IMG/VR virus record: IMGVR_UViG_3300033495_000700
Length of the DNA: 64,000 nt
DNA from: a virus
Lineage: Duplodnaviria; Heunggongvirae; Uroviricota; Caudoviricetes
Strand: one strand, 5' to 3'
Part shown: piece by piece, positions 4,035 to 61,852 of the stretch
How positions within the stretch are numbered: the first letter of the stretch is position 1
Layout: every line of letters starts with the position of its first letter
Program-made: the position numbers and the translations under genes
Notes under the pieces: generated by a model
Database searches by the model: none
What the model saw: only the letters and a program-made list of their open reading frames with translations
Told to the model about the DNA's origin: nothing

Positions 4035-4068
4035 AATGTATCCTTGTGAAAAATGGTGGGATGTTTTG

Positions 4069-4141
4069 TTGGACCCTCCGGACTCGAACCGGAACCTTAC
4101 AAATTATGAGTTTGCGGCACTAACCATTATGCTAGAGTCCA
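4069..4141 (-). tRNA. tRNA-Met (anticodon CAU; could also be a lysidine-modified Ile2 type)
   Basis: Hand-folded from the reverse complement. 7-bp acceptor stem TGGACTC/GGGTCCA, D-stem GCAT/GTGC, anticodon stem GCAAA/TTTGT with loop CTCATAA, and a T-arm TCCGG-TTCGAGT-CCGGA. 73 nt; no CCA encoded. Confidence 0.75.
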
Positions 4142-4220: not shown

Positions 4221-5132
4221 TTATTCTTGCGGTGCAAAATTGGGTAGTAGAAATTCTTGTACTCTTGGCAACGTAAACAGCATGGGAGGCAGTTGATCCA
4301 CTGGAAACCGTTTCAAAATTGATTCTGGTTCCCAGGCCAAACTTTCACCTTCTTCAAATTTAAATCCTTGTGCAGCATGCCGTTGATGCCCCTGATTCGG
4401 TGCATGTGCATATGATCGGCTTTTGACTTGGATCCGGGCATTACCGCCCATCCAACTAAAATGCCACCCAAATTCATCAAATATTTCTCCTCCTATGGTG
4501 GGAGTGACTACCTCAGCTGGCACATGATAACTACAACGAATACGATGCGGGGTTGTTTTTTGTATTATAGATTTTTTACAAATACTCATGGCCGTACGCC
4601 AAACAAATGGCCAACCTGCTCGCGCATATGGTCGCAAGTCGGCTCTGCCGTACAGATTGATCAACGGCAACTTCACAACTGTATCAGGGTTATTCTTGGC
4701 AATGTTCAGAGCAAATTGAATATGATCAGGATTGATGATCTCATCACAATCACTCATCAAAATCCAGTCATTAAGATCAAATTTGTAAAGTACCTTCTGC
4801 AATGCATTGCGCTGAATTCGATCTCGTGCCACAGCTTGTATAGACACGATATCTGCACGGTCTTCAGGAAATTGTGCCTCAAAGTCATGTTGTTCCAACT
4901 GCAAATTAACATCGTCGGCCATGTGTACTTCAACCACTGTGATTTTTTCTGCAGGAAGTCCCAATTCAGCAATCAAATTTTTCAATTGATACTGCCTGGG
5001 TATAGCAGTGTGTGTCATATTGGATTCTGAAATCACAAAATGATCCACGTGATCTTTCAACAGATTAATTCTGAATTCTAACAATTCACGTTCGTTGAAG
5101 TAGGGAAAATAATCAATAAGTTGACCCGCCAT
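4221..5132 (-). CDS. glycosyltransferase family 17-like (bisecting GlcNAc-transferase fold)
   Basis: YFPYFNERELLEFRINLLKDHVDHFVISESNMT, MSDCDEIINPD and FSWMGG resemble the MGAT3/GT17 signature segments. Start at ATG 5132 with an AAGAAAGG RBS. Confidence 0.6.
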   Translation of the reverse strand: MAGQLIDYFPYFNERELLEFRINLLKDHVDHFVISESNMTHTAIPRQYQLKNLIAELGLPAEKITVVEVHMADDVNLQLEQHDFEAQFPEDRADIVSIQAVARDRIQRNALQKVLYKFDLNDWILMSDCDEIINPDHIQFALNIAKNNPDTVVKLPLINLYGRADLRPYARAGWPFVWRTAMSICKKSIIQKTTPHRIRCSYHVPAEVVTPTIGGEIFDEFGWHFSWMGGNARIQVKSRSYAHAPNQGHQRHAAQGFKFEEGESLAWEPESILKRFPVDQLPPMLFTLPRVQEFLLPNFAPQE

Positions 5133-8025: not shown

Positions 8026-8544
8026 TCAGCTACCCGTGCTCAGCACCAGTGTGCGAGGATCTTCTGCATCCGGTGCAAAGCCTTCAATGAACACATGATG
8101 GTCATCACCGCTATCACGGATACAGGCATTGGCTGCGATCCATATAGCCGACCAAGTTGAGCCATTGATGCTACAGCTCACAGGATTCTTACCCCAATGA
8201 TTCTTGTAGACCATACGATCTGCACCTTCGTAAGGGTGACGATCAGAGAGATTGTCTGCTTCGTAAACACTCCATTCACTATTGTCCATGCCCAGTTGCC
8301 GACCCACATCACTGTAATGATTGGACTTGCGATCCATAGAGTCATTGTCCTCTTGGTAAGCACGATCAAGACCTCGACGAATTTCGCTGGCACCGTGAGC
8401 CAATCGTTTGTACAGTTCGGGATTGATCACTGGTTCAAGATGCCGAACAGCACTCTCAAGTTCACAAAGGCCGTTATGAATAGTCGTAAATTCTTCAGCG
8501 GTAAGAGTAGGATTGTGATACATTTTGGCTCCTGGATTATACAA
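8026..8544 (-). CDS. hypothetical protein
   Basis: 172-aa ORF. Confidence 0.45.
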   Translation of the reverse strand: MYNPGAKMYHNPTLTAEEFTTIHNGLCELESAVRHLEPVINPELYKRLAHGASEIRRGLDRAYQEDNDSMDRKSNHYSDVGRQLGMDNSEWSVYEADNLSDRHPYEGADRMVYKNHWGKNPVSCSINGSTWSAIWIAANACIRDSGDDHHVFIEGFAPDAEDPRTLVLSTGS

Positions 8545-8793
8545 TCAATTGTAGTCAGTATCGAGTTCGAATTGATCGTCGTAACGGGCCTCGCCGCCGG
8601 TGTCTCTGCACCACTGCTCGTACTCCACAGCATCCTCTTGCTCACGCCGACGCACAATAGCGTAGGCTTCAGTGTAGGAGGTGCCTTGGGCCATCAAGTC
8701 TACCATCTGTGCTTCAAACTCTTCCATGCTGTAGAACATAGTGTGCTCCTTAATAACTCTGGTGGCTGTGACCAATTCGGTATACTGCACCAC
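8545..8793 (-). CDS. hypothetical protein
   Basis: 82-aa ORF. Confidence 0.45.
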   Translation of the reverse strand: MVQYTELVTATRVIKEHTMFYSMEEFEAQMVDLMAQGTSYTEAYAIVRRREQEDAVEYEQWCRDTGGEARYDDQFELDTDYN

Positions 8794-8965
8794 CTGCCTC
8801 TATACCCAAATCTGCGCTTGCATACTCTGCGGTATAGAGCTCTGGAAGCATACACTCTGCAAACTCACCGTCCGAGTAATAACCGCTCTCAGTCATTACC
8901 AACTTGGCACCTGGCGGCAACTTGCTCAAAGCCTCGATCATTTGTTTTACTGTGATTGCTGTCAT
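8750..8965 (-). CDS. hypothetical protein
   Basis: 71-aa ORF downstream of the promoter at 9000. Confidence 0.4.
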   Translation of the reverse strand: MTAITVKQMIEALSKLPPGAKLVMTESGYYSDGEFAECMLPELYTAEYASADLGIEAGGAVYRIGHSHQSY

Positions 8966-8999
8966 ATTCTGCTCCTTGTGTGTTGCTGTCTATGTATGT

Positions 9000-9028
9000 A
9001 TTATAATGCCTTTTGGATAACCGGTCAA
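9000..9028 (-). promoter_or_regulatory. sigma70-like early promoter (TTGACC N17 TATAAT)
   Basis: Minus-strand reading aggTTGACCggttatccaaaaggcatTATAATaca. Confidence 0.65.
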
Positions 9029-9366
9029 CCTTTGATGTGCTTCCTAGCCCATTCAGCCACAGCGGCTTGGAACCCGTCTTTGTAGAAGTCAATATGAGGA
9101 GTCACGTAGTCGTAGAGACGATGCATTGATTCTCTAGCGGATTCGACATAGGCGGCCTTTTTAGCTTCGGACCACTTGGGGCCACCGGGCCAATAGACCA
9201 GCATGGCCGAGGCAGCTGCCATGTTCCAAACGTAGGCCTCTTTTGTTATCGTATCAACGATCTTAGAAAAGTCCGCCGACTTCTTAGGAACACCATGTTT
9301 GGTCAAAGCCAATTCTACAATCCTCTTCGCTTCGGCCTTTGCGGCCCTTTGAGATATGACTTTCAT
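9025..9366 (-). CDS. hypothetical protein
   Basis: 113-aa ORF. Confidence 0.45.
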   Translation of the reverse strand: MKVISQRAAKAEAKRIVELALTKHGVPKKSADFSKIVDTITKEAYVWNMAAASAMLVYWPGGPKWSEAKKAAYVESARESMHRLYDYVTPHIDFYKDGFQAAVAEWARKHIKG

Positions 9367-9402
9367 CTTCTACTCCTTGTTGCTAAGTATTGTATCAGCG
9401 TT

Positions 9403-9732
9403 TCACGCTCTTGTCAAGTGGTATTGGAACCCTTGTGCAGACTCTTTCTTAAAAATTCCTTCGTTAGCCCAGTCGCCTTCCAACAGCTTCAGCATCTTTG
9501 GATCTGTAATGAATGCACCGTGTTGCACCTTAACAGCAGCACTCTTTTTACCGTAGCCTACATCGTAAACTGTGCCGCTGATCACCATCTCCAACGCCAA
9601 CTTGATGCGATCCATACGGATCTGCTGTGCCTGTGAGTATAGCGTCTTGTTGGCATGGTTGCGCATACGACGGTCCTGCAGGGCAAAGAACTTGTTAGCG
9701 GCTTCTTTAGTGTCTAGCGTTACGGTGTGCAT
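9403..9732 (-). CDS. hypothetical protein
   Basis: 109-aa ORF. Confidence 0.45.
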   Translation of the reverse strand: MHTVTLDTKEAANKFFALQDRRMRNHANKTLYSQAQQIRMDRIKLALEMVISGTVYDVGYGKKSAAVKVQHGAFITDPKMLKLLEGDWANEGIFKKESAQGFQYHLTRA

Positions 9733-9757
9733 TGTGTCTCCTTGTTGCTATGTATGT

Positions 9758-9786
9758 ATTATACCGCCGTTTAGATAACCCGTCAA
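9758..9786 (-). promoter_or_regulatory. sigma70-like early promoter (TTGACG N17 TATAAT)
   Basis: Minus-strand reading ggTTGACGggttatctaaacggcggTATAATaca. Confidence 0.65.
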
Positions 9787-10019
9787 CCAATTGCTTTGTA
9801 TAACCCTACAAGTCCTATGGATAATGACACAAAATTCACCACAACTTGTGGCTTATTTCCCACACGAGCAGCCCAGATCAAGAACGCTATAGTGCCCACA
9901 GCAAACACCAAAATATTCCAGGGATACACCGCGGGACCTATTGCGTTGAGCACGTGCCCGGCAATGATTGCTACGGCACCCGCCCATTGAATTACTTCAT
10001 TTTTAAAATTAGATATCAT
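9783..10019 (-). CDS. small integral membrane protein
   Basis: 78 aa, mostly hydrophobic (AGAVAIIAGHVLNAIGPAVYPWNILVFAVGTIAFLIWAA). Confidence 0.45.
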   Translation of the reverse strand: MISNFKNEVIQWAGAVAIIAGHVLNAIGPAVYPWNILVFAVGTIAFLIWAARVGNKPQVVVNFVSLSIGLVGLYKAIG

Positions 10020-10046
10020 TGGCTTCTTTTGTGTCTATATGTGCTT

Positions 10047-10075
10047 ATTATACAAGGGTTTGGATTTCTGGTCAA
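10047..10075 (-). promoter_or_regulatory. sigma70-like early promoter (TTGACC N17 TATAAT)
   Basis: Minus-strand reading tggTTGACCagaaatccaaacccttgTATAATaag. Confidence 0.65.
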
Positions 10076-10082
10076 CCAAATA

Positions 10083-10122
10083 CCAAAAGAAAAGGGCCGT
10101 AAAGGCCCTTGTTCTTGTTTTT
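10083..10122. terminator. rho-independent terminator; palindromic stem usable on both strands
   Basis: The hairpin gggccgtaaaggccc is flanked by T/A runs on both sides. It lies just downstream of the stop of the 10129..10926 gene. Confidence 0.55.
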
Positions 10123-10128
10123 ATCCAA

Positions 10129-10926
10129 TCACTTGTTCATCATCAATGCTGTGAAGTTTGAAGGTACAACAATAGTTTGCACTTTACCGTTCTTGATACC
10201 TTCGGAGATGTTCAACATGGCCTGTGCTTCCATGAACTTGATAGAACTACCTGAATTGTTAGCCAATGCTGCCATACGACGACTTTCGGCTTCGGCAGTT
10301 TTGACCTCAACTTCTTTCTGTTTCAGTTCATTCTTGCTACGAACCAATGCGTTAGCACTTTCCACAACTGTGTCGCTTGGAACAACATTACGAATCAATA
10401 CCTGACTGATCATGATAGTACCGTCTAGTTTTTCTTCAGCAAGATTGCGAACAATTTCATCCTGAATGAACTTTTCCATTTCGCTACGCTTGTCAGCCAT
10501 GTCCAGTGCTTCGTACTTACGTGCTGCCTTGTAGATGGCATTACGAGCATTTTGCACAATGTAGTTGTACATCACATAAGTGTCTCCTTTGAACTCGGCG
10601 TGGAATGCTTTGTTCTTGGTTGAATACAGTTCTGCCACTTGTTGTGGGTTAATATTATACACAACCACAGCATCAAAATCTTTCATTGTGCTGTTGTCGG
10701 CTGCCACAGGAGTCATGTCATTCAGTGTGACATTAACATCCTTGACAGGGAAGGTCAAGACTTCGCCGATCAGGACCTGATTGAACGAACCAGGCAGCAA
10801 CTCACCAGGCTGTACCTGTTTATCAAAACCAACTCTCACACCCACCTCACCGGTTTCAATGCGAGTACATGCAGATGTTAGAGCAACTGCGGTCAGAACA
10901 AAACCAACTTTAACCAAACGATTCAT
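10129..10926 (-). CDS. SPFH/band-7 (prohibitin/HflK-like) domain lipoprotein
   Basis: N-terminus VLTAVALTSAC carries a lipobox. An SPFH-like core is followed by a coiled-coil tail. Confidence 0.7.
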   Translation of the reverse strand: MNRLVKVGFVLTAVALTSACTRIETGEVGVRVGFDKQVQPGELLPGSFNQVLIGEVLTFPVKDVNVTLNDMTPVAADNSTMKDFDAVVVYNINPQQVAELYSTKNKAFHAEFKGDTYVMYNYIVQNARNAIYKAARKYEALDMADKRSEMEKFIQDEIVRNLAEEKLDGTIMISQVLIRNVVPSDTVVESANALVRSKNELKQKEVEVKTAEAESRRMAALANNSGSSIKFMEAQAMLNISEGIKNGKVQTIVVPSNFTALMMNK

Positions 10927-30582: not shown

Positions 30583-31569
30583 TCATTCAAACGAAAATAA
30601 GCTAGTAAATGTATTTGCTGTGTTTGTACTTGATTGCAAGTCCCAGGACAGCACACCCAATAGATTGTCAATCTTTTGGTCCACCACAGTGGCTTCCATG
30701 TTAGCATCATCAAACGGCAGTTCTTTAAACCAGGCTGGCAAATGATGCTCGTCTGTGGGATACCCAATACTGGTCCACCCTAGAGCATTGCTCTTGAGTT
30801 TGCATACAATGGTTTTCATACCATCCACAATCTGCATGGAGTAATTGTCTGAATTCATGCGTCGCAATGTGTTCCAGTTCAATGCAGCTCGAACATGTCC
30901 GGGCATGTTGGACTTGCCATTTTTTTCTTCTAAATTGCCATACTTGGTCAAGTTGTTCACACGCTTGGGTGAGCCTTTTTCCCAGCCCGGGCGTTCGGTA
31001 AATTTGTATTTGAATTCTCTGATACATTCCACAATTTCTTCTCTCTGTGTTCCTGTTAGTACCTTATTTAGAAGATCGCTAAGGAACTCTTGAATAACCA
31101 CCGGAGTATCACTGCGTTTTAGATCCAGACCCATGGCCTTTACCTTGCCCGGTCGGCCATTTACATCCACACGCTTGTTTTCTTTGTCAATGTACAGCAC
31201 AGCATAACGCTTCTTGGTAATAAACAAACCGGTACGTGCTACAATTTCTCGACCACCACGAATCACAGATCCCATGTCTCGTGGACAATGAAATGCCTGT
31301 TCCATGAATCCAGGAAAAGAATCATTCACTTGTTCGGCTATGGAGTTGTACAATGCAATACAAGTTTCTGCAGACCACTCCATTCTACCATCTTCAACTT
31401 CAGCTTGAACCATGGGCCACGCTGAAAAGTAACACGAATCTGTGTTATGTACTAAAATATCATTTGCAAAGAAGAACGGATCTTGTTTGTCAATGCTTAT
31501 ATCATACACATAGTCGTCAATTTCGCCAAGGCATTCGACGCTCTTTACTGTTGTTCTTTCAATATCCAC
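30583..31569 (-). CDS. 43: DNA polymerase (family B) C-terminal fragment, preceded by the C-terminal split-intein half (IntC)
   Basis: GTG start right after a TAA. Begins VDIERTTVKSVECLGEIDDYVYDISIDKQDPFFFANDILVHN|TDSCYF. The IntC resembles Npu DnaE IntC (VYDIGVERDHNFALKNGFIASN). The extein then supplies the TDS of motif C and the thumb domain. Confidence 0.8.
   Translation of the reverse strand: MDIERTTVKSVECLGEIDDYVYDISIDKQDPFFFANDILVHNTDSCYFSAWPMVQAEVEDGRMEWSAETCIALYNSIAEQVNDSFPGFMEQAFHCPRDMGSVIRGGREIVARTGLFITKKRYAVLYIDKENKRVDVNGRPGKVKAMGLDLKRSDTPVVIQEFLSDLLNKVLTGTQREEIVECIREFKYKFTERPGWEKGSPKRVNNLTKYGNLEEKNGKSNMPGHVRAALNWNTLRRMNSDNYSMQIVDGMKTIVCKLKSNALGWTSIGYPTDEHHLPAWFKELPFDDANMEATVVDQKIDNLLGVLSWDLQSSTNTANTFTSLFSFE
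31444..31569 (-). other. split intein C-terminal half (IntC, 42 aa) ending HN, with +1 Thr
   Basis: ...YVYDISIDKQDPFFFANDILVHN followed by TDS. Confidence 0.75.
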
Positions 31570-31767
31570 TGGATTACTTTCTTAATTATTTCATGCTTAT
31601 TTGCTTTGAACTCGGATTCCAATATTACCAACGTCTTGAATCCAAGGTCCTGAACAGTCTGTAATTTTAGCATATCTCGATGCCTGATTTCAGCCGCAGT
31701 TTTACCTCGCATGATTGCAGAATCCGCATATACTGCTGGGTTAGCATGCCAGTAATCACCGTTAAAT

Positions 31768-32295
31768 TCATGTAGATAGGCAAATTATCAAATCATTTGG
31801 CAGGATATCAACAGGCTTAACTTCAATCAGGAATCCGTCACGATCTACCATTACGCTGTGATCTTCTGTCACTGTAACCGACTTATCATTATGCAATGTT
31901 ATTTTGTACAGTTTCTTTTTAGTTTTATGTCGCATAACATAAGAAATCCTACTCAAAACTGGCGCATCGTCGAACGCATTAAAGCCGACTACTTTAGCAA
32001 ACGACTGAACGCCGTATTCTTTATCACCATTACGTTCGTGTTGCTGGCACTGATTATATAACTCTGCAATTGTGATCTGTTCCGAATCGGTACGAATCAG
32101 TGTATCTCCGGTTACACTGTCGCCATATATGATACTTTTACCACTGTGATCATACTCGCCTGTGATGCATTCATTCACATATGCATCCATGTGCTTGGCA
32201 ATACTGCGACCCACCAAGGTTGTTGACTGTCCAATACGCTTGTCAAAGAATCTGCAGCCGGGATTCAAGATGGCACCATACACATTTATGTTCAG
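31768..32295 (-). CDS. 43: DNA polymerase (family B) middle fragment (motif B to YGD) fused to the N-terminal split-intein half (IntN)
   Basis: (L)NINVYGAILNPGCRFFDKRIGQSTT...IIYGD then SVTGDTLIRTD...TVTEDHSVMVDRDGFLIEVKPVDILPNDLIICLST*. The extein aligns to T4 gp43 INSLYGALGNVWFRYYD...LYGD. The intein carries blocks A and B (TxxH). Confidence 0.8.
   Translation of the reverse strand: MNINVYGAILNPGCRFFDKRIGQSTTLVGRSIAKHMDAYVNECITGEYDHSGKSIIYGDSVTGDTLIRTDSEQITIAELYNQCQQHERNGDKEYGVQSFAKVVGFNAFDDAPVLSRISYVMRHKTKKKLYKITLHNDKSVTVTEDHSVMVDRDGFLIEVKPVDILPNDLIICLST
31771..32118 (-). other. split intein N-terminal half (IntN, ~116 aa, Ser1)
   Basis: It begins immediately after YGD and is followed by a stop and then a 198-nt spacer containing several in-frame stops. 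Confidence 0.7.
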
Positions 32296-33742
32296 CTAAC
32301 TTCGCTAAAGTTAGTTCGTTTAGATTTACTAAACCGCCTTATATTTCTATAAGGATCAGACTATATCACCATCCAATTATTGGATGCCCCCCGTTTCGAT
32401 TCGCTTGAATCTACGTCTTTCGACTAGTCGTTGAACCTTCATATTGCTATGCTTGGCTGCTGATTGTCTTCAACTTAATGGTCAGAGTTTCCAGCAATTA
32501 GAGGAGTTATTCAACTATTGTTACCAATAGAGGTCGCAGTATCTTTACGAATTTAAATTAATTTTCTTAACCAATTGGCGCTTATCCCAAAACACTATCT
32601 GTTTTTTGACTTCTTCTTGATTTTTGTGAAATATTTTATTGTCGGAAATAACAAGATCATTTCTTGCACAAAACTCCTTTAACTCAGCAGCAGTGCCTTT
32701 TTCTAGCAATGTATTGAGATCGTTAATATTCATCTATTCCTCTCTTGTTGAAAATTTGTCGGTTGTGCTCGTTTTGTACTTCTTTAGTCTCGAAAATAAT
32801 CTCCGGGGACCAATTGTCTGATGAAATTCTTACGATTTGAATTCCTTCTTCTAAGCATATCTGATGCTTACTGATATCATTTTTTATCGATGATTCTTTT
32901 CGATGCCAATATTCTCCATCAACTTCTACTAATAATAGCATGTCTGACAAGTAAAAGTCAAATTTTTTCTCCCTAACGGGATATTGAGTGACGTATCTAA
33001 TATTATTTTTGTTTAAAAATTGTTCAAATTGTATTTCTAAACTTGTAGTTTTTTTATTTGGGAATACTAATTTGTTTTCTTTTAAATATTCTTTTCTCCG
33101 AATACTCAAGTTGAGTCGATATTTTTCAAATTCGATCAAGTCATCTTTACGTCTTCTCCACGCCTGTTGTTGATTTAATGTTTTTTGTTGTTTTACATCT
33201 GGCAGTAAGACAAGTTTTTTACCTTTTTTTGCAATAGAAAGATTTCTTTTAGTTTCGTCAGTGTGTGTTACTCCAGGCTTCCCTATTCTGGATTCGTGAT
33301 AACACTTTTGGCATTGCATGCCGTTTAAAAAATTCCCCAAGTTCACTGTATAAGTCCCATGGTGTAAACATTTTACTTGTATTTGATCAGTTCTCGTTAA
33401 CACTTTATTTGGAAGAGCAACAATAGAATAATTGTTAGTTTCTGCTTGATATACTTCTTCTAAAGATATAATATTGTTAGTATTAATATGATTCCTACAT
33501 CTAACGTTATCTACATTGTCTCGAAATCTTTTGGTAATCGTTACTGTTTTGCTACAAATTTCGCACACAGGTATTGGATCACTCCTTAGGTATAGTTGTA
33601 TGGCTCCTGATAAATCAGAAATATTTTCTTTACCTCCGTAGTACTCTATTAATCGTTTAAACTGTCGGGGATACTTTTTCTTAAAATCATTAACAAAATT
33701 CATAATATTTCCTTTATATTATTTATCCTGTTACTTTTCAGA
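32296..33742 (-). mobile_element. 1.45-kb insertion in polB motif B; putative HEG-containing group I intron (a precise split gene is the alternative)
   Basis: Exon 1 ends ...SISQKN and exon 2 begins (L)NINVYG, together recreating the KxxxNSxYG region. The 3' part contains GACTA ... 70 nt ... TAGTC (a P7-like pair), a ccttataGAAAtataagg GNRA hairpin, two further hairpins and a terminal ...ttaG before the exon. A TAG stop sits just inside. Confidence 0.5.
32723..33703 (-). CDS. homing endonuclease with Vsr/DUF559-type (EVDG...H) nuclease domain
   Basis: C-terminal FDFYLSDMLLLVEVDGEYWHRKES...DISKHQICLEEGIQIVRI. The N-terminus is Cys-rich. It starts 40 nt after the stop of polB exon 1 with an AAAGGAAA RBS. 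Confidence 0.65.
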   Translation of the reverse strand: MNFVNDFKKKYPRQFKRLIEYYGGKENISDLSGAIQLYLRSDPIPVCEICSKTVTITKRFRDNVDNVRCRNHINTNNIISLEEVYQAETNNYSIVALPNKVLTRTDQIQVKCLHHGTYTVNLGNFLNGMQCQKCYHESRIGKPGVTHTDETKRNLSIAKKGKKLVLLPDVKQQKTLNQQQAWRRRKDDLIEFEKYRLNLSIRRKEYLKENKLVFPNKKTTSLEIQFEQFLNKNNIRYVTQYPVREKKFDFYLSDMLLLVEVDGEYWHRKESSIKNDISKHQICLEEGIQIVRISSDNWSPEIIFETKEVQNEHNRQIFNKRGIDEY

Positions 33743-35362
33743 TTAATTTTTTTGACTAATGGATAGTCTGTCAGGTATTGTGATACCGCTTGACAAGTCG
33801 TTCCATAGGTTTTTAGTTTTCTGCATGTCTAGACGTTCACTATACCAGCGTTTGAGCAAGCCTGGGATTACACCTTCTTTTTCGTAGGTGAATATGGTAC
33901 CATTGGCACTGAGGATCCATGGTCGATTAGAGTCAAACAGCATCTTCCAAATTTCAGCAGCTGAGTGAACAGTTTCCTCGCCATCCTGCCAGTCTATGGT
34001 GATCTCTGTGCCACGTTGCTGTTCCATCACAGCAGTGTATTCTAAGCTGGCAAACAATCCTTCCCATGCAGCAGCAAAGCTATCTCCGCCAGCTATTTTG
34101 TCTTGGATTAGCCGGTCAGTCAGTGTGGGTCTGAGTTGGCCGACAATGGTTTCTGGACCCATGTTAAGGGCCCGAATAGCACTGGGATAGAGCGAGTTGA
34201 TGTCGATGCTACCAATCCAGTCGTGGATCCCTTTTTTGGGATAAGCAACATAGGCACCTGCGGCTTGCGTGTCATCATCTGTGAGTCTTTCTTTACGGTT
34301 AGGAACTACCATACCACGTTCGTGAGCTTCAATAATAATTGCTTGCTCAGTCACAGCCACTGCACCCATTGTGGTCGGCAACAGCACGGTATTTTCATGT
34401 GCCAGGGTATTGGCCAAGCTCAAGAATTTAAGTTTCTTGTCCAGCTTGCCGATCAACATTGTGTCCTGGCGATTGTAATCAATAAAGATCTTGAAGTTCT
34501 GGTTGTACAACTGATCCAGTGTGCCTTCAAATGCAGTCTTACGACCAATTTCTTCGTATTCACCAATGGCGTCTAAGGCATAGCTGTGACGTTCTTCATA
34601 AGTGTATTTGCGATACAGTTGCATATAGTCCATATGCACTCGACCTACCAAGTCATAGGTTTGATTCTCTGCACCAAATCGTTCAAACATACGTGGCTTG
34701 GGAAACTGATTCCATAAGCACATACGTCTAGTGTCATCTTTGCTGAGAACTCTGGTGATTCGATTCACAGTGTAGGGAATGTCGTAACCTTCCGAGTTCC
34801 ATCCAGTGAGAATGTCTGCATCTTCAATAAGATCCAGAAATGTGTTCAACATGTCTGCTTCTTTTTCAAACATAAAGCAGTTGTCAAACTCTGCTGCAAT
34901 CTCTTTGGCAGTTTCCATGCTCATATGACGTGGAGGTACAGCCAGCGTCACAATTTGATCCAGCCAATCCATGTACACAGAGATAGCAGTGATTGGGTTG
35001 AACGGATCTGTCACAGGTGAGAAACCACGTTTGGGATCAAAGTCTACTTCAATGTCATAGAATGCTGTGTGCAGTTGAGGGCCGTCTTTGCCTTTGTAGT
35101 TTTCCTCTAAACAACGAAAGATAGGGTTAATATCACTTTCGTAGATTTTCTTGCTGGAGTGCATACGCACTTCCTTGCGAAACTCTTTGTTGTTGCGTGA
35201 GGAAAATCTACTCACTGGCGTGTCGTAGATGCTACGAAACTTGCCTTTGGGGTCGTCGTAGTAAAGAACGTAGTTGGCTGGATACTCTTGGTATACCCGT
35301 CGGCCATCTCGGCGTTCAACCACGTGAATTCGATCATGTGCTCGATCATATAAACAGTCCAC
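33743..35362 (-). CDS. 43: DNA polymerase (family B, T4 gp43-like) N-terminal fragment: 3'-5' exonuclease plus palm motif A
   Basis: FYDIEVD (Exo I), GWNSEGYDIPY (Exo II), YNRQDT (Exo III), SIDINSLYPSAI (motif A). Ends ...SISQKN*. Confidence 0.9.
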   Translation of the reverse strand: MDCLYDRAHDRIHVVERRDGRRVYQEYPANYVLYYDDPKGKFRSIYDTPVSRFSSRNNKEFRKEVRMHSSKKIYESDINPIFRCLEENYKGKDGPQLHTAFYDIEVDFDPKRGFSPVTDPFNPITAISVYMDWLDQIVTLAVPPRHMSMETAKEIAAEFDNCFMFEKEADMLNTFLDLIEDADILTGWNSEGYDIPYTVNRITRVLSKDDTRRMCLWNQFPKPRMFERFGAENQTYDLVGRVHMDYMQLYRKYTYEERHSYALDAIGEYEEIGRKTAFEGTLDQLYNQNFKIFIDYNRQDTMLIGKLDKKLKFLSLANTLAHENTVLLPTTMGAVAVTEQAIIIEAHERGMVVPNRKERLTDDDTQAAGAYVAYPKKGIHDWIGSIDINSLYPSAIRALNMGPETIVGQLRPTLTDRLIQDKIAGGDSFAAAWEGLFASLEYTAVMEQQRGTEITIDWQDGEETVHSAAEIWKMLFDSNRPWILSANGTIFTYEKEGVIPGLLKRWYSERLDMQKTKNLWNDLSSGITIPDRLSISQKN

Positions 35363-57472: not shown

Positions 57473-58168
57473 TTATGGTCGTTTTTGCACTTGTACAGTT
57501 TTGCGAGTCAGCCCCGGGCATACTATTGCCAACATGGTAAGATGTTTGAGATCATGGTGTTCTACAAAATAATGCTCTCGGCTCCATGCCGAATACGGAG
57601 ATGCTTTACCCCATCCAAGACCTTGTGTGATAGTAGTATCAGTAAACCATCTTTCAGTAACAGGACTGGCCACAAGATCCGGAGTCTGATGGCTGATCCA
57701 GTTCCACACTGCTTGTTTTTTATCTCTAGATAATCTCTTTTCCTTGAGATAAGTTCTATATGGATATTTGGGTTGATTGATCAACATGATCACATCCTTA
57801 GGATACGCCAGCACTGCTTGTTTAGCACTGGATTCTGTTGGATAATTTCTAAACAGCGTATCGACATCTTTGATGTCATTGGTGTAAATATGAAAAGTAT
57901 TGTACCCATATGTGCGGTGAATAAATTTACTATCCAGAGTTTCTAATACATCCACCGCATGCAGTATGTTTTGTTTGGTCAAATCTGATGTCAATTGGGA
58001 CCCAATTGACGACTTATATTGATCACGTTTACGTATACGTTCCAGGATCATTGGGCGAGAAAGACTACTCAACAACCAAGCATCATCAATATGTAGACTT
58101 ACCACATATTCATACTTGCCAAAATAAAGTGATCCGCGTGGTTCACACTGCCATTGAGGTAGTAACAT
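57473..58168 (-). CDS. hypothetical protein
   Basis: 231-aa ORF. Confidence 0.4.
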   Translation of the reverse strand: MLLPQWQCEPRGSLYFGKYEYVVSLHIDDAWLLSSLSRPMILERIRKRDQYKSSIGSQLTSDLTKQNILHAVDVLETLDSKFIHRTYGYNTFHIYTNDIKDVDTLFRNYPTESSAKQAVLAYPKDVIMLINQPKYPYRTYLKEKRLSRDKKQAVWNWISHQTPDLVASPVTERWFTDTTITQGLGWGKASPYSAWSREHYFVEHHDLKHLTMLAIVCPGLTRKTVQVQKRP

Positions 58169-59339
58169 GCTGTGGTGCCTTTAGTTCAAATACAATTTTA
58201 TCCGCCTGCAATTCTACATTCAATGCACAATCAGTCAGCTGTTCAAACAAGATTCGTCTGCTTAATGGTACACGAATCAATTCATCAATTTTGCGATTCA
58301 ACGGACGAGCACCCATCTTGCTGTCGTAGCCTTGTTCTGCCAACAATTCAATCACAGGCTCCGAGAAAAACAATCGGATATTCTTTTCTGCCACACTAGA
58401 TTTCAGTTGGTCCAAGAACTTCACAACAATCTTCTTGATAGCCAGTGTATCCAACTTGGTAAACTTGCAAATTTTGTCAATACGATTACGTAGCTCTGGG
58501 CGGAAGAACTCTTTCATTGCACGATCTTCTTCGCCAGATTTCTCTAAGTCAGTACTGAATCCAATGTTGTTGTTTTCATTGTCTCTGGCACCCAGGTTAG
58601 ATGTCATGATAATAATGGTGTTTTTGCAGTCTACTCGTTTGCCATTTGCACCTGTCACATGTCCTTCATCCAGCATCTGCAGCAGGATATTGGTAACATC
58701 TGAATGTGCTTTTTCAATTTCATCAAACAAGATCACAGAGAATGGATGTTTACTTAGGTCACTGATAAGTTTTCCGCCGCCTACATTACCATCTTCAAAT
58801 CCCACATATCCTGGAGGTGCACCGATCAAACTGCTGACAGAAAACTTCTCTTGGAACTCACTCATGTCATAGCGTAACAAGTGCATGTCCAAATTTTCAC
58901 TCAATAGCTTGGCTAATTCTGTATTGTGATGAATAATACCGTTTGATGTTTGATACAAGTGGGTCGGAGAATCTACACTTAAATCATAGAATACTGTGTC
59001 GTTGATAGATTCAATGTTGGTCACTTGAATTTTTTCGCCATTGGCTGTGATGATGCATTCTCCAATGATAAGTTCATTTAGAAAAACACAAGTTGTTCCA
59101 CCGTCAATTGAAATTCGATGGTTCCTAGCAGCTTTGACTATGCTACCGTTACTAAAAGTAATTTGTAGTCCGATATCATTTTTAGTGACAGCAGCATTGA
59201 TTCTGACCCAGTTGTTTTTTTCATCTTTGATTTTTAATTCAGAATTAAGGAATTGTTCTTGTTCCGGAATAAAATTAAGTTTTTCGTATTGCTCAAGTAT
59301 GGCAAAGAGTTTGCCAATTGGTAATGTTTGTTCGATCAT
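58143..59339 (-). CDS. ClpA/ClpB-like ATPase C-terminal fragment: large split-intein C-half (139 aa) followed by the rest of AAA+ D2
   Basis: ...VFYDLSVDSPTHLYQTSNGIIHHN|TELAKLLSENL...GAPPGYVGFEDGN...ILFDEIEKAH...LLQMLDEGHVTG...IIIMTSNLGA. The extein resumes exactly at the T of GPTGxGKT. TAGGAGA RBS. Confidence 0.8.
   Translation of the reverse strand: MIEQTLPIGKLFAILEQYEKLNFIPEQEQFLNSELKIKDEKNNWVRINAAVTKNDIGLQITFSNGSIVKAARNHRISIDGGTTCVFLNELIIGECIITANGEKIQVTNIESINDTVFYDLSVDSPTHLYQTSNGIIHHNTELAKLLSENLDMHLLRYDMSEFQEKFSVSSLIGAPPGYVGFEDGNVGGGKLISDLSKHPFSVILFDEIEKAHSDVTNILLQMLDEGHVTGANGKRVDCKNTIIIMTSNLGARDNENNNIGFSTDLEKSGEEDRAMKEFFRPELRNRIDKICKFTKLDTLAIKKIVVKFLDQLKSSVAEKNIRLFFSEPVIELLAEQGYDSKMGARPLNRKIDELIRVPLSRRILFEQLTDCALNVELQADKIVFELKAPQHVTTSMAV
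58923..59339 (-). other. atypical split intein, large C-terminal half (IntC, 139 aa) ending HHN|T
   Basis: Blocks F/G VFYDLSVDSPTHLYQTSNGIIHHN. Preceded by a 113-nt spacer with a hairpin. Confidence 0.7.
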
Positions 59340-59452
59340 CTGAGTCTCCTATTAGGTAAAGTATCTACGTATGTATTATGCTGGGTGGATTGTGTTTGAA
59401 ATGTACTCGTCGGAAGTAATAAGCACTCGTCAAGTGCTTATTGAACATCTAG

Positions 59453-61021
59453 CTAGATTAGGTTATATTCTTTAGCAAACTTATACATATCGTTGGTCAT
59501 CTGTACAGTTACTTCTTGGTCGTGGGCTAAACATTTACCTGTGCCAGTTGGGCCCAGGAACAAGAAACTTGCCATGGGCTTGCCTTGTGTACCAATTCCA
59601 GAGAAGTTGATGTACACACGTTCCAGTACTGAGTCCACGGCTTGTTCTTGTCCATAGAGCTTTTGTTTGATGTTGCTTTCTAGATCCACAATCTTCAAAC
59701 TGCGTTCATTTTGCAGTCTGTCAGTGGGCACGCCAGTTACCCGTGCCACTTGTTCTTCAATCATGCTTTTGTTCACAGTGACTAGACCTGCATCTTTAAC
59801 ACGTTCTCTAGCACAGGCAGCATCCAGCAAGTCAATGCTTTTGTCTGGATTCTTCTTGTCATGAATATATCGAGCAGCAAGATCCACAGCAGCAGTCATG
59901 GCTTCTGTGTCAATCAGCACATTGTGGAATGTTTCCAAGCGTGGGCTTAGTCCAATTAGAATTTTTTCTGTGGTGTCACGATCTGGTTCATCAATGCTGA
60001 GACGATAGAATCGACGCATGAGTGCTCGATCTTTCTCAAATGATTCGTAGTATTCTTCCCAAGTTGTGCTGGCAATAACTTTCAAATGGCCTTTGGTAAT
60101 TGCTGGTTTCAGCATGTTGGCAAAGTCCAAGCTACCAGAACTACCTGCTCCTGCACCTTTCATGGTGTGTGCTTCGTCCACAAACAAGATACACTTTTTC
60201 TTGGCTTCCAGTGCAGAGATCACTGCCTTGAACTTTTCTTCAAAGTCGCCGCGATATTTAGATCCTGCTACCAAACTGCCAATTTCCAGACTCCATATTT
60301 CGTGATCTTTGAGGAACTCAGGCACACGATTTTGTGCAATTTCCTGTGCAAGGCCTTCAATGATAGCAGTTTTGCCCACACCAGGATCACCCACCATGAG
60401 TACATTGGCTTTGAAACGACGTGCCAGCACAGCAATCATTTCGTCTAATTCTTTTGAACGACCAATCAACGGCTCCAGTTGGTCAGCAGAGGCCATTGCA
60501 CTTAGACTGGTACAATATTCTTCCAACACTTCAGTAGCTTGTTGATGATTCATACCTGCGGCTGCTCGTTCTGACTTGTAGTTCCTGGTCCAAAAATCCA
60601 CAAATTCAGCTTTGTGTACGCCGTATTTCAACAAGAAGTAGTGTGCATTGCTGTTGGTCTCACCCATGATGGCCAAGTACAAGTCAATGGTCACAACTTG
60701 TCTACGTCCTGTAAACAACACCTGAGTCAGCGCACGATTAAACACTCGTTCCAATGCAGCGGTCTTGCGTGGAGTTAAATCTTCTCCAGCGCGAATCAGA
60801 CTTTGTAGGCTGTCCAGATAGCCACACAGTTCAGTTTCCAACATGGCCACGTCACAGCCATATTTGGCTAGAGTTTTTCTAAATGAATCATGTCTTACTA
60901 GACTCAACAGTAAATGTTCTGTTAGAACATACTCATGATGCCAGGTACGTGCAATCTGCACCGCACCTTCAATGATGGCGTCAATTTCGGGATTGTCTTG
61001 AATTTGGTTTGAATTGCTCAT
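59453..61021 (-). CDS. ClpA-like ATPase N-terminal fragment (N domain, AAA+ D1, start of D2 through the P-loop GPTGTGK) plus short split-intein N-half
   Basis: VLMVGDPGVGKTAIIEGLAQ (D1 Walker A), ILFVDEAH (Walker B), FLFLGPTGTGK then CLAHDQEVTVQMTNDMYKFAKEYNLI*. Confidence 0.8.
   Translation of the reverse strand: MSNSNQIQDNPEIDAIIEGAVQIARTWHHEYVLTEHLLLSLVRHDSFRKTLAKYGCDVAMLETELCGYLDSLQSLIRAGEDLTPRKTAALERVFNRALTQVLFTGRRQVVTIDLYLAIMGETNSNAHYFLLKYGVHKAEFVDFWTRNYKSERAAAGMNHQQATEVLEEYCTSLSAMASADQLEPLIGRSKELDEMIAVLARRFKANVLMVGDPGVGKTAIIEGLAQEIAQNRVPEFLKDHEIWSLEIGSLVAGSKYRGDFEEKFKAVISALEAKKKCILFVDEAHTMKGAGAGSSGSLDFANMLKPAITKGHLKVIASTTWEEYYESFEKDRALMRRFYRLSIDEPDRDTTEKILIGLSPRLETFHNVLIDTEAMTAAVDLAARYIHDKKNPDKSIDLLDAACARERVKDAGLVTVNKSMIEEQVARVTGVPTDRLQNERSLKIVDLESNIKQKLYGQEQAVDSVLERVYINFSGIGTQGKPMASFLFLGPTGTGKCLAHDQEVTVQMTNDMYKFAKEYNLI
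59456..59533 (-). other. atypical split intein, short N-terminal half (IntN, 26 aa, Cys1)
   Basis: CLAHDQEVTV... lies directly after the Walker A Lys. Compare 25-aa IntN fragments of AceL/GOS TerL-type atypical split inteins. Confidence 0.65.
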
Positions 61022-61069: not shown

Positions 61070-61852
61070 TTATTCGGCAGATTCCTGCTGTATAGCAGCC
61101 ATTAATTCTGGAGAGATCCTGGCAGGCAATCTGGCCTGCACTCGTACCAACATATCTCCCAGTTGTCCATTTCGATCAGGTAATCCACGACCTCTGGCAC
61201 GCAACATACTGTTGGGATTTGTGTTGGGTGGTATACTGAGTTCAATTCGATTGCCACGTATGTCCAACATGGGCACATCGCCTCCAGTTATCAATCGCCA
61301 AACACACACAGTGATTTGGGTATGTGCATTGTTGTCCACTCGTTGCCATGTTCGATCTGGATGTACACGGAATGTGATCACAATATCCTGCCCATTGGGA
61401 CCAATATTGGGGTATTGCACATTGTCCCCATCTGCGATGCCGTTGGGTATGGTGATTTCAATATTGTGTGTGCCTGTATTTGTGCCAAGAGAAACCACTC
61501 TAGACCCCGGGGCAGCCACATCTTGTATGGTTATCCACAAGGTCATTCTGGCATGACCACGCTGAGGCTGCTGCTGAAATTTGGTTCCAAACATGTTGAA
61601 GATTTCGTTGAAATCAAAGTTATGATGAAATCCCCCACCTCCAAATGAATGTTGTGGCTGCGGGTTATTATAAGCTGCACGTTTTTGTTCGTCGCCCAGA
61701 GTTTCGTAAGCCGCTTGAATCTCTTGAAATTTTGTTGTGTCACCACCTGCTCTATCGGGGTGGTGCTGCGACGCTAGTTTTCTAAACGCACGTTTTATTT
61801 CATCAGCGGAGGCTGTGCGGGCCACGCCCAGGGTAGCATAGTGATCAGTCAT
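61070..61852 (-). CDS. DnaJ-family co-chaperone (J domain with HPD)
   Basis: DHYATLGVARTASADEIKRAFRKLASQHHPDRAGGD...FQEIQAAYETLGDEQKRAAYN. Confidence 0.85.
   Translation of the reverse strand: MTDHYATLGVARTASADEIKRAFRKLASQHHPDRAGGDTTKFQEIQAAYETLGDEQKRAAYNNPQPQHSFGGGGFHHNFDFNEIFNMFGTKFQQQPQRGHARMTLWITIQDVAAPGSRVVSLGTNTGTHNIEITIPNGIADGDNVQYPNIGPNGQDIVITFRVHPDRTWQRVDNNAHTQITVCVWRLITGGDVPMLDIRGNRIELSIPPNTNPNSMLRARGRGLPDRNGQLGDMLVRVQARLPARISPELMAAIQQESAE

Follow-up and report, generated by a model that had tools for sequence, protein, structure and literature searches.

A predicted atypically split intein in the D2 Walker A loop of a ClpA-like gene from a large uncultivated phage

This study concerns a clpA-like gene that lies in two pieces on the minus strand of a 64,000-nt stretch of phage DNA (IMG/VR record IMGVR_UViG_3300033495_000700; hereafter the window, meaning the whole stretch at its full length). 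The two pieces are tandem open reading frames (ORFs). Judged by sequence comparison and structural modelling, they very probably carry the halves of a natural, atypically split class-1 intein placed between Lys and Thr (GPTGTGK/T, the slash marking the junction) of the D2 Walker A motif of a ClpA-type double-ring AAA+ unfoldase of a large uncultivated phage. The halves would trans-splice to a protein of 755 residues, and the gene would have been split by the insertion of an endonuclease gene that has since been lost.

The split clpA-like gene and its intein

The elements of the locus, with IntN and IntC denoting the N- and C-terminal intein halves, are given below.

59453..61021, minus strand: ORF1, the gene of the N-precursor, 522 aa; its end reads ...FLFLGPTGTGK followed by CLAHDQEVTVQMTNDMYKFAKEYNLI and TAG
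59534..61021, minus strand: N-extein, 496 aa, made up of Clp_N, D1 AAA+ module, AAA lid and the first part of D2, through Walker A (...GPTGTGK)
59456..59533, minus strand: IntN, 26 codons, CLAHDQEVTVQMTNDMYKFAKEYNLI, holding Cys1 and strand β2, then a short helix and a tail
59453..59455, minus strand: TAG stop of the N-precursor, read from the sequence; at the same place in the six related loci that include this half (see below)
59340..59452, no strand assigned: spacer between the precursor genes, exactly 113 nt
59346..59350, minus strand: Shine-Dalgarno sequence AGGAG, 6 nt 5' of the ORF2 ATG
58143..59339, minus strand: ORF2, the gene of the C-precursor, 398 aa; a 139-residue head, then TELAKLLSENL
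58923..59339, minus strand: IntC, 139 aa, MIEQTLPIGKLF...NGIIHHN, with β3/α1 and blocks B, F and G
58143..58922, minus strand: C-extein, 259 aa plus stop, beginning with Thr+1 (TELAKLL...) and comprising the remainder of D2 AAA+, an IGF tripeptide and ClpB_D2-small

An earlier note on this DNA had described the same two ORFs at the same positions, with the 26-residue tail, the 113-nt spacer and the 139-residue head, and the sequence confirms all of these. The ORFs are in different frames and have separate translation signals: the TAG closes ORF1, and ORF2 is preceded by its own AGGAG-N6-ATG, the strong ribosome-binding site of the earlier description. The spacer hairpin mentioned there is also present (59418–59442). 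The precursors have computed masses of 58.5 and 44.8 kDa, and the conceptual ligated product of 755 aa comes to 84.6 kDa instead of the ~100 kDa that had been proposed.

The interrupted protein was recognized by profile comparison. The NCBIfam ClpA model TIGR02639 matches residues 12–497 of ORF1 (profile positions 4–501) and residues 138–370 of ORF2 (profile positions 499–726). The profile is thus cut cleanly at the D2 Walker A motif, and exactly the 26-aa tail and the 139-aa head remain unmatched, which speaks against a chance arrangement. Pfam domains Clp_N, AAA and AAA_lid_9 are found in ORF1, and AAA_2, entered only at profile position 16 (16–166), and ClpB_D2-small in ORF2; the N-extein also matches PHROG 4871, annotated 'ATP-dependent protease' (positions 9–510). 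The product of conceptual splicing gives a single unbroken alignment with the intein-free ClpA proteins of the jumbo phages Atu_ph07, Phosso and PA5oct (~38% identity, ~95% coverage), and with the ClpA-like protein P0073 at 55% identity straight through the D2 junction (FLF.GP.GTGKTELAKLL). The halves score 489.6 and 279.4 bits, below the equivalog cut-off of TIGR02639 (993 bits, set for the whole protein), yet all domains are there in the order Clp_N, D1, lid, D2, D2-small, and the ClpB M-domain is absent; we therefore use the label ClpA-like. The IGF tripeptide of the C-extein sits at what we take to be the position of the ClpP-docking loop.

The sequence left over by the ClpA profile has the properties of an intein. 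An AlphaFold2 (AF2) model of the fused IntN and IntC (165 aa), built with a 58-sequence alignment as input, has a HINT (Hedgehog/intein) fold with a predicted local distance difference test score (pLDDT) of 96.1 and a predicted template modelling score (pTM) of 0.89; the same fusion modelled without an alignment gave a pLDDT of 35. Every one of the 50 PDB matches listed by Foldseek is an intein or a related HINT (bacterial intein-like) domain, the best template modelling (TM) scores among the matches listed being 0.73–0.76, with the RadA intein at 0.76. VidaL (root-mean-square deviation 2.7 Å, TMt 0.82, 22% identity) has the lowest deviation among the near-full-length alignments listed, and PolB16 OarG, gp41-1 and Npu DnaE are also among the matches listed. 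VidaL (6vgv, E 0.024) was likewise the top match when PDB sequences were searched by phmmer with IntC. By these sequence and model comparisons, the window intein is closest to VidaL in sequence and among its closest counterparts in fold. In an hhalign comparison, a profile built from the joined halves and Npu DnaE align over their whole length (E = 1e-5).

The residues expected to carry out splicing are conserved. Cys1 directly follows the N-extein (GPTGTGK/CLAHD) and is present in every homologue with an N-part. Across 58 diverged sequences, no change is seen at Lys79, His100 (block B), His153 (block F), His164 or Asn165; in the numbering of the fused halves, IntC supplies the block-B His100, the block-F Asp145 and His153, and the block-G His164-Asn165. 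Blocks F and G and the junction read VFYDLSVDSPTHLYQTSNGIIHHN/T, and at +1 each homologue whose junction was found has Thr, Ser or, in a single case, Cys. The proposal of a split intein at the D2 Walker A motif of a ClpA-like ATPase thus holds, given the ClpA profile cut at GK/T, the HINT model and the conserved catalytic residues. Similarity to intein blocks, which the earlier note had set beforehand as a test, is evident in blocks B, F and G and in the alignment with Npu DnaE. That the extra sequence is an intein is strongly supported; the window copy is weak by sequence alone, and comparison with its relatives decides.

Two natural atypical split positions have been described: S1, just after β2 (VidaL, PolB16 OarG), and S2, after α1 (AceL-TerL, GOS-TerL) (PMC13014065). 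In the AF2 model, a strand at 7–13, a helix at 14–18 and a lower-confidence loop at 19–26 precede the break, and a strand at 27–33 and a helix at 34–44 follow it. When aligned by hhalign, LPIGK of IntC stands opposite L16–K20 of Npu DnaE, and the IntN tail, TNDMYKFAKEYNLI, is treated as an insertion. Helix α1 (IGKLFAILEQY) is encoded in IntC, the β3/α1 region reading LPIGKLF. The same layout is seen in two contiguous inteins, that of P0067 (CLAYSQEVTIQM-LESVSKEN-MIEVTMPIGQIF) and the clamp-loader intein of LR756508.1 (CLGYSEMVDVKIG-AVNSNERE-LRLPVGRLF). In the model, the window intein is therefore of the S1 type, with its break after β2 and a short helix and before β3/α1. The short helix is family-specific (NDMYKFA in the window; NDIAKLI, NDIAEKL and NDMLTFL in relatives), and IntN has 26 aa instead of 15–16 because this helix and the tail extend past β2.

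An S2 reading, in which NDMYKFAKEY of the IntN tail would correspond to α1 of AceL, was considered and rejected, as the contiguous relatives and Npu DnaE place α1 at LPIGKLF. The likeness to AceL and GOS drawn in the earlier note does not extend to the split, which falls at the S1 position of VidaL and PolB16 OarG with α1 in IntC. VidaL, which had been grouped there with the TerL inteins, is not one of them; we take its hosts to be a T4-like helicase and UvsX.

In the proposed mechanism, ORF1 and ORF2 would be translated separately into the N- and C-precursors, and the 26-aa IntN would dock onto the 139-aa IntC to complete the HINT fold, as in the model. By the chemistry of the family, Cys1 would then form a thioester, Thr+1 would attack it, Asn165 would cyclise, and an O-to-N shift would yield the 84.6-kDa ClpA-like protein with an intact P-loop. 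The predicted ligated junction reads ...GPTGTGKTELAK..., and the D2 P-loop GPTGTGKT would exist only after splicing.

Related loci and the origin of the split

Seven distinct related loci were reached by several different searches among JGI, ENA and IMG/VR contigs; they come from different metagenomes and viral contigs, and include loci on phage contigs of 142 kb and 326 kb. The IntC start is identical in all seven (L001, L002, L004, L006, L008, L010 and L012), and IntC has 137 aa in each (139 in the window). The 26-aa IntN and the position of its stop are kept in all six loci that include the N-half (L001, L002, L006, L008, L010 and L012). Against the relatives, the proportion of nonsynonymous differences (pN) is 0.11–0.28 in IntN, where the proportion of synonymous differences (pS) is 0.49–1.1 and near saturation; pN is 0.17–0.32 in IntC and 0.24–0.49 in the flanking exteins, with pS mostly 0.7–0.9. 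We give pN and pS instead of the rate ratio dN/dS because synonymous sites are saturated. Divergence of the intein is no higher than that of the exteins, so these sequences strongly support a genuine split that is under selection. A search of 185,579 bacterial and archaeal genomes found no relatives of IntC, and a nucleotide search of cultured phages gave no match except short conserved D2 stretches.

At one of the loci, an in-frame stop is present in the C-extein (L001 2104–2106, JGI Ga0136644_10065296; GAPPG-stop-VGY, as against GAPPGYVGF in the window). A sequencing error, a nonsense mutation and recoding are all possible explanations of it.

The related loci also clarify the nature of the spacer. 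A complete antisense ORF of 362–393 aa lies between the halves in L001, L002, L006, L008 and L010, and L004 contains the beginning of this ORF; the spacer is ~1165–1220 nt where this gene is present, and the last ~23 nt of the ORF overlap the end of IntN, tail to tail. Two elements of the window spacer bear on this comparison.

59380..59475, plus strand: 3' remnant of an antisense Vsr-like putative homing-endonuclease gene, ~31 codons plus stop, about 96 nt
59418..59442, minus strand: stem-loop with 11 base pairs (one of them G-U) and a loop of 3 nt, beginning 11 nt past the IntN stop

On the plus strand, the window remnant reads ..AGWIVFEMYSSEVISTRQVLIEHLARLGYIL before its stop, and the C-terminus of the 362-aa ORF of L001 reads ..RGWLVFEIYSSETASTKQEIFEYLIKSGYVL before its own; the remnant also matches the C-termini of the L002 and L006 ORFs. 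Its last 23 nt overlap the final IntN codons and the IntN stop. At the other side of the spacer, the ~30 nt ahead of the ORF2 ATG match L004 sequence upstream of its IntC. The remnant and the L004-like match together indicate that a deletion of ~1.06 kb removed nearly all of the ~1.1-kb antisense ORF. The spacer length in the earlier note was correct, but the spacer itself is not a designed linker; it is what remains of an antisense putative endonuclease gene. In L012, the spacer is only 30 nt and the ORFs are in frame, with TAG TAA and 8 sense codons between them; ORF2 is preceded by GAGG at a distance similar to that of AGGAG in the window. A contiguous allele at the same D2 site also exists, in the 919-aa protein P0067 (CLAYSQEVTIQMLESVSKENMIEVTMPIG).

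The antisense ORF belongs to a family of 58 clusters at 90% identity, with members on contigs of up to 397 kb; both of the members examined lie in a DnaJ / ClpA-N / ORF / ClpA-C setting on contigs of 63–326 kb. Within the ORF, D275, E286 and H293 are invariant and G289 nearly so, with spacing identical to that of D51, F62, G65 and H69 in Vsr. A Glu at the position of Vsr F62 is a hallmark of Vsr-like homing endonucleases (Dassa et al. 2009, PMC2677866). One distant match of the ORF carries the JGI name Vsr.

The window stem-loop falls inside the remnant. Its folding gives z = -2.3 over 76 nt and z = -0.5 over the whole 146 nt. Very stable stem-loops at the equivalent place, on the minus strand, were found in L006 (~5015–5051, z = -4.5) and L008 (~5026–5074, z = -6.0), where they lie in coding sequence at the 3' end of the antisense putative endonuclease gene, and none was found at this place in L002 or L010. 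No terminator-like site was called in the window spacer.

The split most likely originated by insertion of an endonuclease gene. A free-standing gene of a Vsr-like homing endonuclease would have inserted into the β2 loop of a contiguous mini-intein such as that of P0067, and later loss of the endonuclease (~1.06 kb) would have left the window with a fractured gene at its 'endonuclease lost' stage.

Several observations weigh against parts of this interpretation. The window intein stays below the cutoffs of both general intein models, Pfam Intein_splicing (E = 0.002, 18.3 bits, cutoff 35.8) and TIGR01443, intein_Cterm (E = 0.13, 12.6 bits, cutoff 15.6), and block B reads AARNH, with Ala for Thr, the sole departure from the textbook motifs. 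Seven of the 84 family members scanned match Intein_splicing at E <= 1e-5 (best 1.2e-14), and further scanned members match the Hint, PT-HINT and Hint_2 models; since those seven are more distant members of the family, we read the sub-threshold score as divergence, not as absence of an intein. Most members of the family have Ala, Cys or Gly in place of the block-B Thr, and Ala at this position is tolerated in other inteins. The assignment of the antisense ORF is statistically weak: hhalign places the ORF family in the same register as Vsr with a probability of 13% (E = 0.002; Vsr sequence entered by hand), DUF559 is matched by only two of 29 family members (E = 0.0026), the L001 ORF has no match in Pfam, and neither a single sequence nor a profile of the ORF matches PDB sequences. 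For this reason, we call it a putative Vsr-like homing endonuclease. ORF1 and ORF2, placed in tandem on one strand, would be co-transcribed, and the stem-loops of L006 and L008 could mark the meeting point of convergent transcripts. From sequence, modelling and comparison, splicing is nevertheless the most likely activity of the window intein.

Other explanations of the locus were weighed against trans-splicing. The intein pieces might serve as a dimerisation zipper, giving a two-chain ClpA-like enzyme that assembles non-covalently, in the manner of Aeh1 NrdA. Products of split phage genes that assemble without splicing are known, at least in the case of the fragmented NrdA of phage Aeh1 (PMC3045599), and the loss of the block-B Thr would fit such a role. 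However, ~165 residues inserted in the Walker A loop at GK/T would prevent the P-loop from forming unless they were excised, and Cys1, His100, Asp145, His153, His164, Asn165 and Thr+1, which a zipper would not need, are conserved in highly diverged homologues. We consider non-covalent assembly improbable. Slightly less probable still is a decaying pseudogene, in which a once-contiguous intein-bearing clpA was broken by endonuclease insertion and deletion and lost its function. The window spacer is visibly a deletion scar, and the in-frame stop of L001 could be read in the same way, but both window ORFs are intact (522 and 398 codons), a strong Shine-Dalgarno sequence precedes ORF2, and change at the protein level is constrained although synonymous sites have reached saturation. 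Six loci also repeat the stop and start of the window, and a seventh its IntC start, some of them on the 142-kb and 326-kb contigs.

The split could, finally, reflect an assembly or sequencing artefact, or recoding by read-through or frameshift into a single cis-splicing precursor. The in-frame arrangement of L012, in which little more than two stop codons separates the ORFs, and the contiguous 919-aa allele of P0067 speak for such an explanation. The window ORFs, on the other hand, are 113 nt apart in different frames with the scar of an antisense gene between them, and ORF2 has its own Shine-Dalgarno sequence and ATG. The same architecture is found in independent JGI, ENA and IMG/VR assemblies, and at least 84 clusters of proteins that begin with IntC were called independently (see below). 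We judge this the least probable of the alternatives, and very improbable, and retain the trans-splicing split intein as the reading of the locus.

The wider intein family and other features of the window

A word-indexed protein search gave one relative with IntC as query and six with a profile, and an exhaustive phmmer search was required to recover the family. It returned 182 representative proteins at E < 0.001, of which 66 at E < 1e-10. The family was clustered at 50% identity, and 122 representatives were examined for layout. At least 84 of these begin with an IntC homologue that ends HHN/T or HHN/S at ~131–150, and ~10 are contiguous. The earlier statement that such inteins are known only from a few cases stands for characterised examples but not for sequence data, in which at least 84 clusters are present. 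The hosts include ClpA-like D2 modules (12–17 clusters), AAA_5, RecA/UvsX, SF2 helicases, DnaB, PhoH and clamp loaders.

On balance, we favour the view that the window intein belongs to a large undescribed family of S1-type split inteins at the Walker A GK/T or GK/S site of many phage ATPases (ClpA D1 and D2, MoxR-like, RecA/UvsX, DnaB, SF2 helicases, PhoH, clamp loaders and SbcC), split repeatedly by one family of Vsr-like homing endonucleases that inserts in either orientation into the β2 loop. If this is true, the ClpA loci would represent successive stages: a contiguous intein in P0067, the endonuclease present in L001, L002, L006, L008 and L010, a remnant in the window, and a clean 30-nt spacer in L012. 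In that case the family would also offer a ready source of short-IntN inteins for the semisynthesis of proteins.

Individual members show further variants. At the D1 Walker A motif of ClpA-like proteins, the same intein family is split in P0070 (IntC followed by TSCVEKLA...) and contiguous in P0073, where the D2 site is empty. In L017 (2743–4612; ENA ERZ28615680 scaffold_8), the P-loop of an SbcC/Rad50-like gene is cut by an S1-type split intein with an IntN of 29 aa, CVNGSTMVEIFISDEVKNDMLTFLNRFSK; between the halves, on the same strand and overlapping the IntC start, lies P0048, a distant homologue of the endonuclease ORF, in the classic fractured-gene layout. A clamp-loader/RFC-like AAA+ gene of the uncultured huge phage LR756508.1 (L015 3264–4658) contains a contiguous family intein at GK/T and has an intein-containing PolB and a TnpB-like ORF as neighbours. 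In a second huge phage, GCA_902726435.1 (L016 3001–3786), a clamp-loader-type gene begins with IntC (P0062, split), and its N-half was not found.

A second gene of the window, that of DNA polymerase B, is also in pieces (30583–35362, minus strand). PolB-N is the ORF 33743..35362. The ORF that follows it on this strand (32723..33703, 326 aa) contains a motif resembling Vsr/DUF559, LLLVEVDGEYWHRK ... GIQIVRISSDNW. The next ORF, 31768..32283, ends ...SIIYGD followed by SVTGDTLIRT...LIICLST and a stop, which would be an IntN of ~117 aa with Ser1 at motif C (YGD/TDS), and the ORF 30583..31569 begins with MDIERTTVKSVECLGEIDDYVYDISIDKQDPFFFANDILVHN followed by TDSCYFSA, a 42-aa IntC. By sequence, the pieces resemble the halves of another intein, canonically split and of the Ser1/Thr+1 kind, which recalls that of Aes123 PolB1.

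With its phage-type DNA polymerase B, the window is phage-like. Its far end holds, as judged by eye, a lysin resembling class-I chitinases and a pair of small spanin-like ORFs, and the sole tRNA found in the window is a tRNA-Met (CAT) at 4068–4141 on the minus strand. Upstream of the split clpA-like gene lies one further gene of the locus.

61070..61852, minus strand: DnaJ-like co-chaperone gene, immediately upstream of clpA, with a J-domain signature; outside the intein

This synteny is conserved: DnaJ/DnaJ_C genes are found upstream of the split clpA in L006 and L008, and DnaJ-like ORFs in L002 and L012. Small repeat ORFs (G..HREDGPA.EYADG.REW.LNG, MORN-like by eye) flank clpA in L002 (2446–3232 and 8113–8469) and are also seen in L003 (2370–2741), and L002 contains a 673-aa ORF (8442..10463, minus strand) with an EYNG.YWH nuclease motif.

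Comparison with known systems

The ClpA homologues of the jumbo phages Atu_ph07, Phosso and PA5oct share the N-domain, D1 and D2 layout of the predicted spliced product, but their genes are uninterrupted, whereas the window gene is split. DnaJ co-chaperones are also known from jumbo phages (PMC7824862). A survey of jumbo phages mentions ClpA and DnaJ and no intein in either, and our literature search found no paper describing ClpA or ClpB inteins.

Among split inteins, the nearest counterparts are VidaL (16-aa IntN) and PolB16 OarG (15-aa IntN), which, like the window intein, have an S1 break and a long IntC with blocks B, F and G (PMC13014065, PMC10189870). VidaL and the window intein both use Cys1. 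They are only ~22% identical, the IntN of the window (26 aa) is longer than those of VidaL and PolB16 OarG, and the window intein ends HHN, as compared with SHN in VidaL. The window host, with its ClpA-type chaperone P-loop, is unlike what we take to be the hosts of these two inteins (helicase, UvsX, PolB). AceL-TerL (25-aa IntN) and GOS-TerL (37-aa IntN) resemble the window intein in their short IntN, long IntC, Cys1 and phage or metagenomic provenance, and the IntN length of AceL-TerL is nearly the same; they differ in being split at S2 (PMC13014065), whereas α1 of the window intein is in IntC, and in host protein and insertion site. The engineered Ssp DnaB S1/M86 (11-aa IntN) has the same break point between β2 and β3/α1, but it was split by design, whereas the window intein is split in nature and its IntN is longer.

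Natural atypically split inteins with an IntN of 15–37 aa were thus already known (PMC10189870, PMC13014065). What is new here is the ClpA-type chaperone host, the antisense endonuclease of the relatives, the remnant in the spacer and how large the family is. A short IntN is within reach of chemical synthesis, and natural split inteins that have one are therefore in demand for live-cell labelling and protein semisynthesis; only a handful of them had been characterised as of 2026 (PMC13014065). A chaperone or unfoldase, as opposed to a DNA-metabolism enzyme, is a new kind of host for a split intein. As predicted from the sequence, the D2 ATP site would work only after trans-splicing, which could in principle gate the ClpA-like motor.

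The arrangement as a whole is best compared with fractured genes, in which a split intein interrupts a host gene whose two parts keep their place and orientation, mainly in phages (PMC2677866). Step III of the scheme proposed for them, in which the free-standing endonuclease is lost, leads to a compact two-gene arrangement (PMC2677866), and the window matches this 'endonuclease lost' derivative of Dassa et al. 2009. Its relatives share with fractured genes a free-standing Vsr-like endonuclease gene between the halves, putative in their case. In the 26 loci of 2009, the three ORFs are on one strand and the 3' end of the endonuclease gene lies over the IntC start (PMC2677866), whereas in the relatives of the window the endonuclease gene is antisense and its 3' end lies over the end of IntN. 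The strict layout, with a whole endonuclease gene and all genes on the same strand, is accordingly seen neither in the window nor in its relatives. Fractured-gene inteins are all canonically split except the terminase intein (PMC2677866), whereas the window intein is atypically split, and their hosts are DNA-metabolism enzymes (PMC2677866), whereas the window host is a chaperone. With these differences, the related loci form an unusually complete series, running from the origin of such a split to the later disappearance of the invading endonuclease gene.

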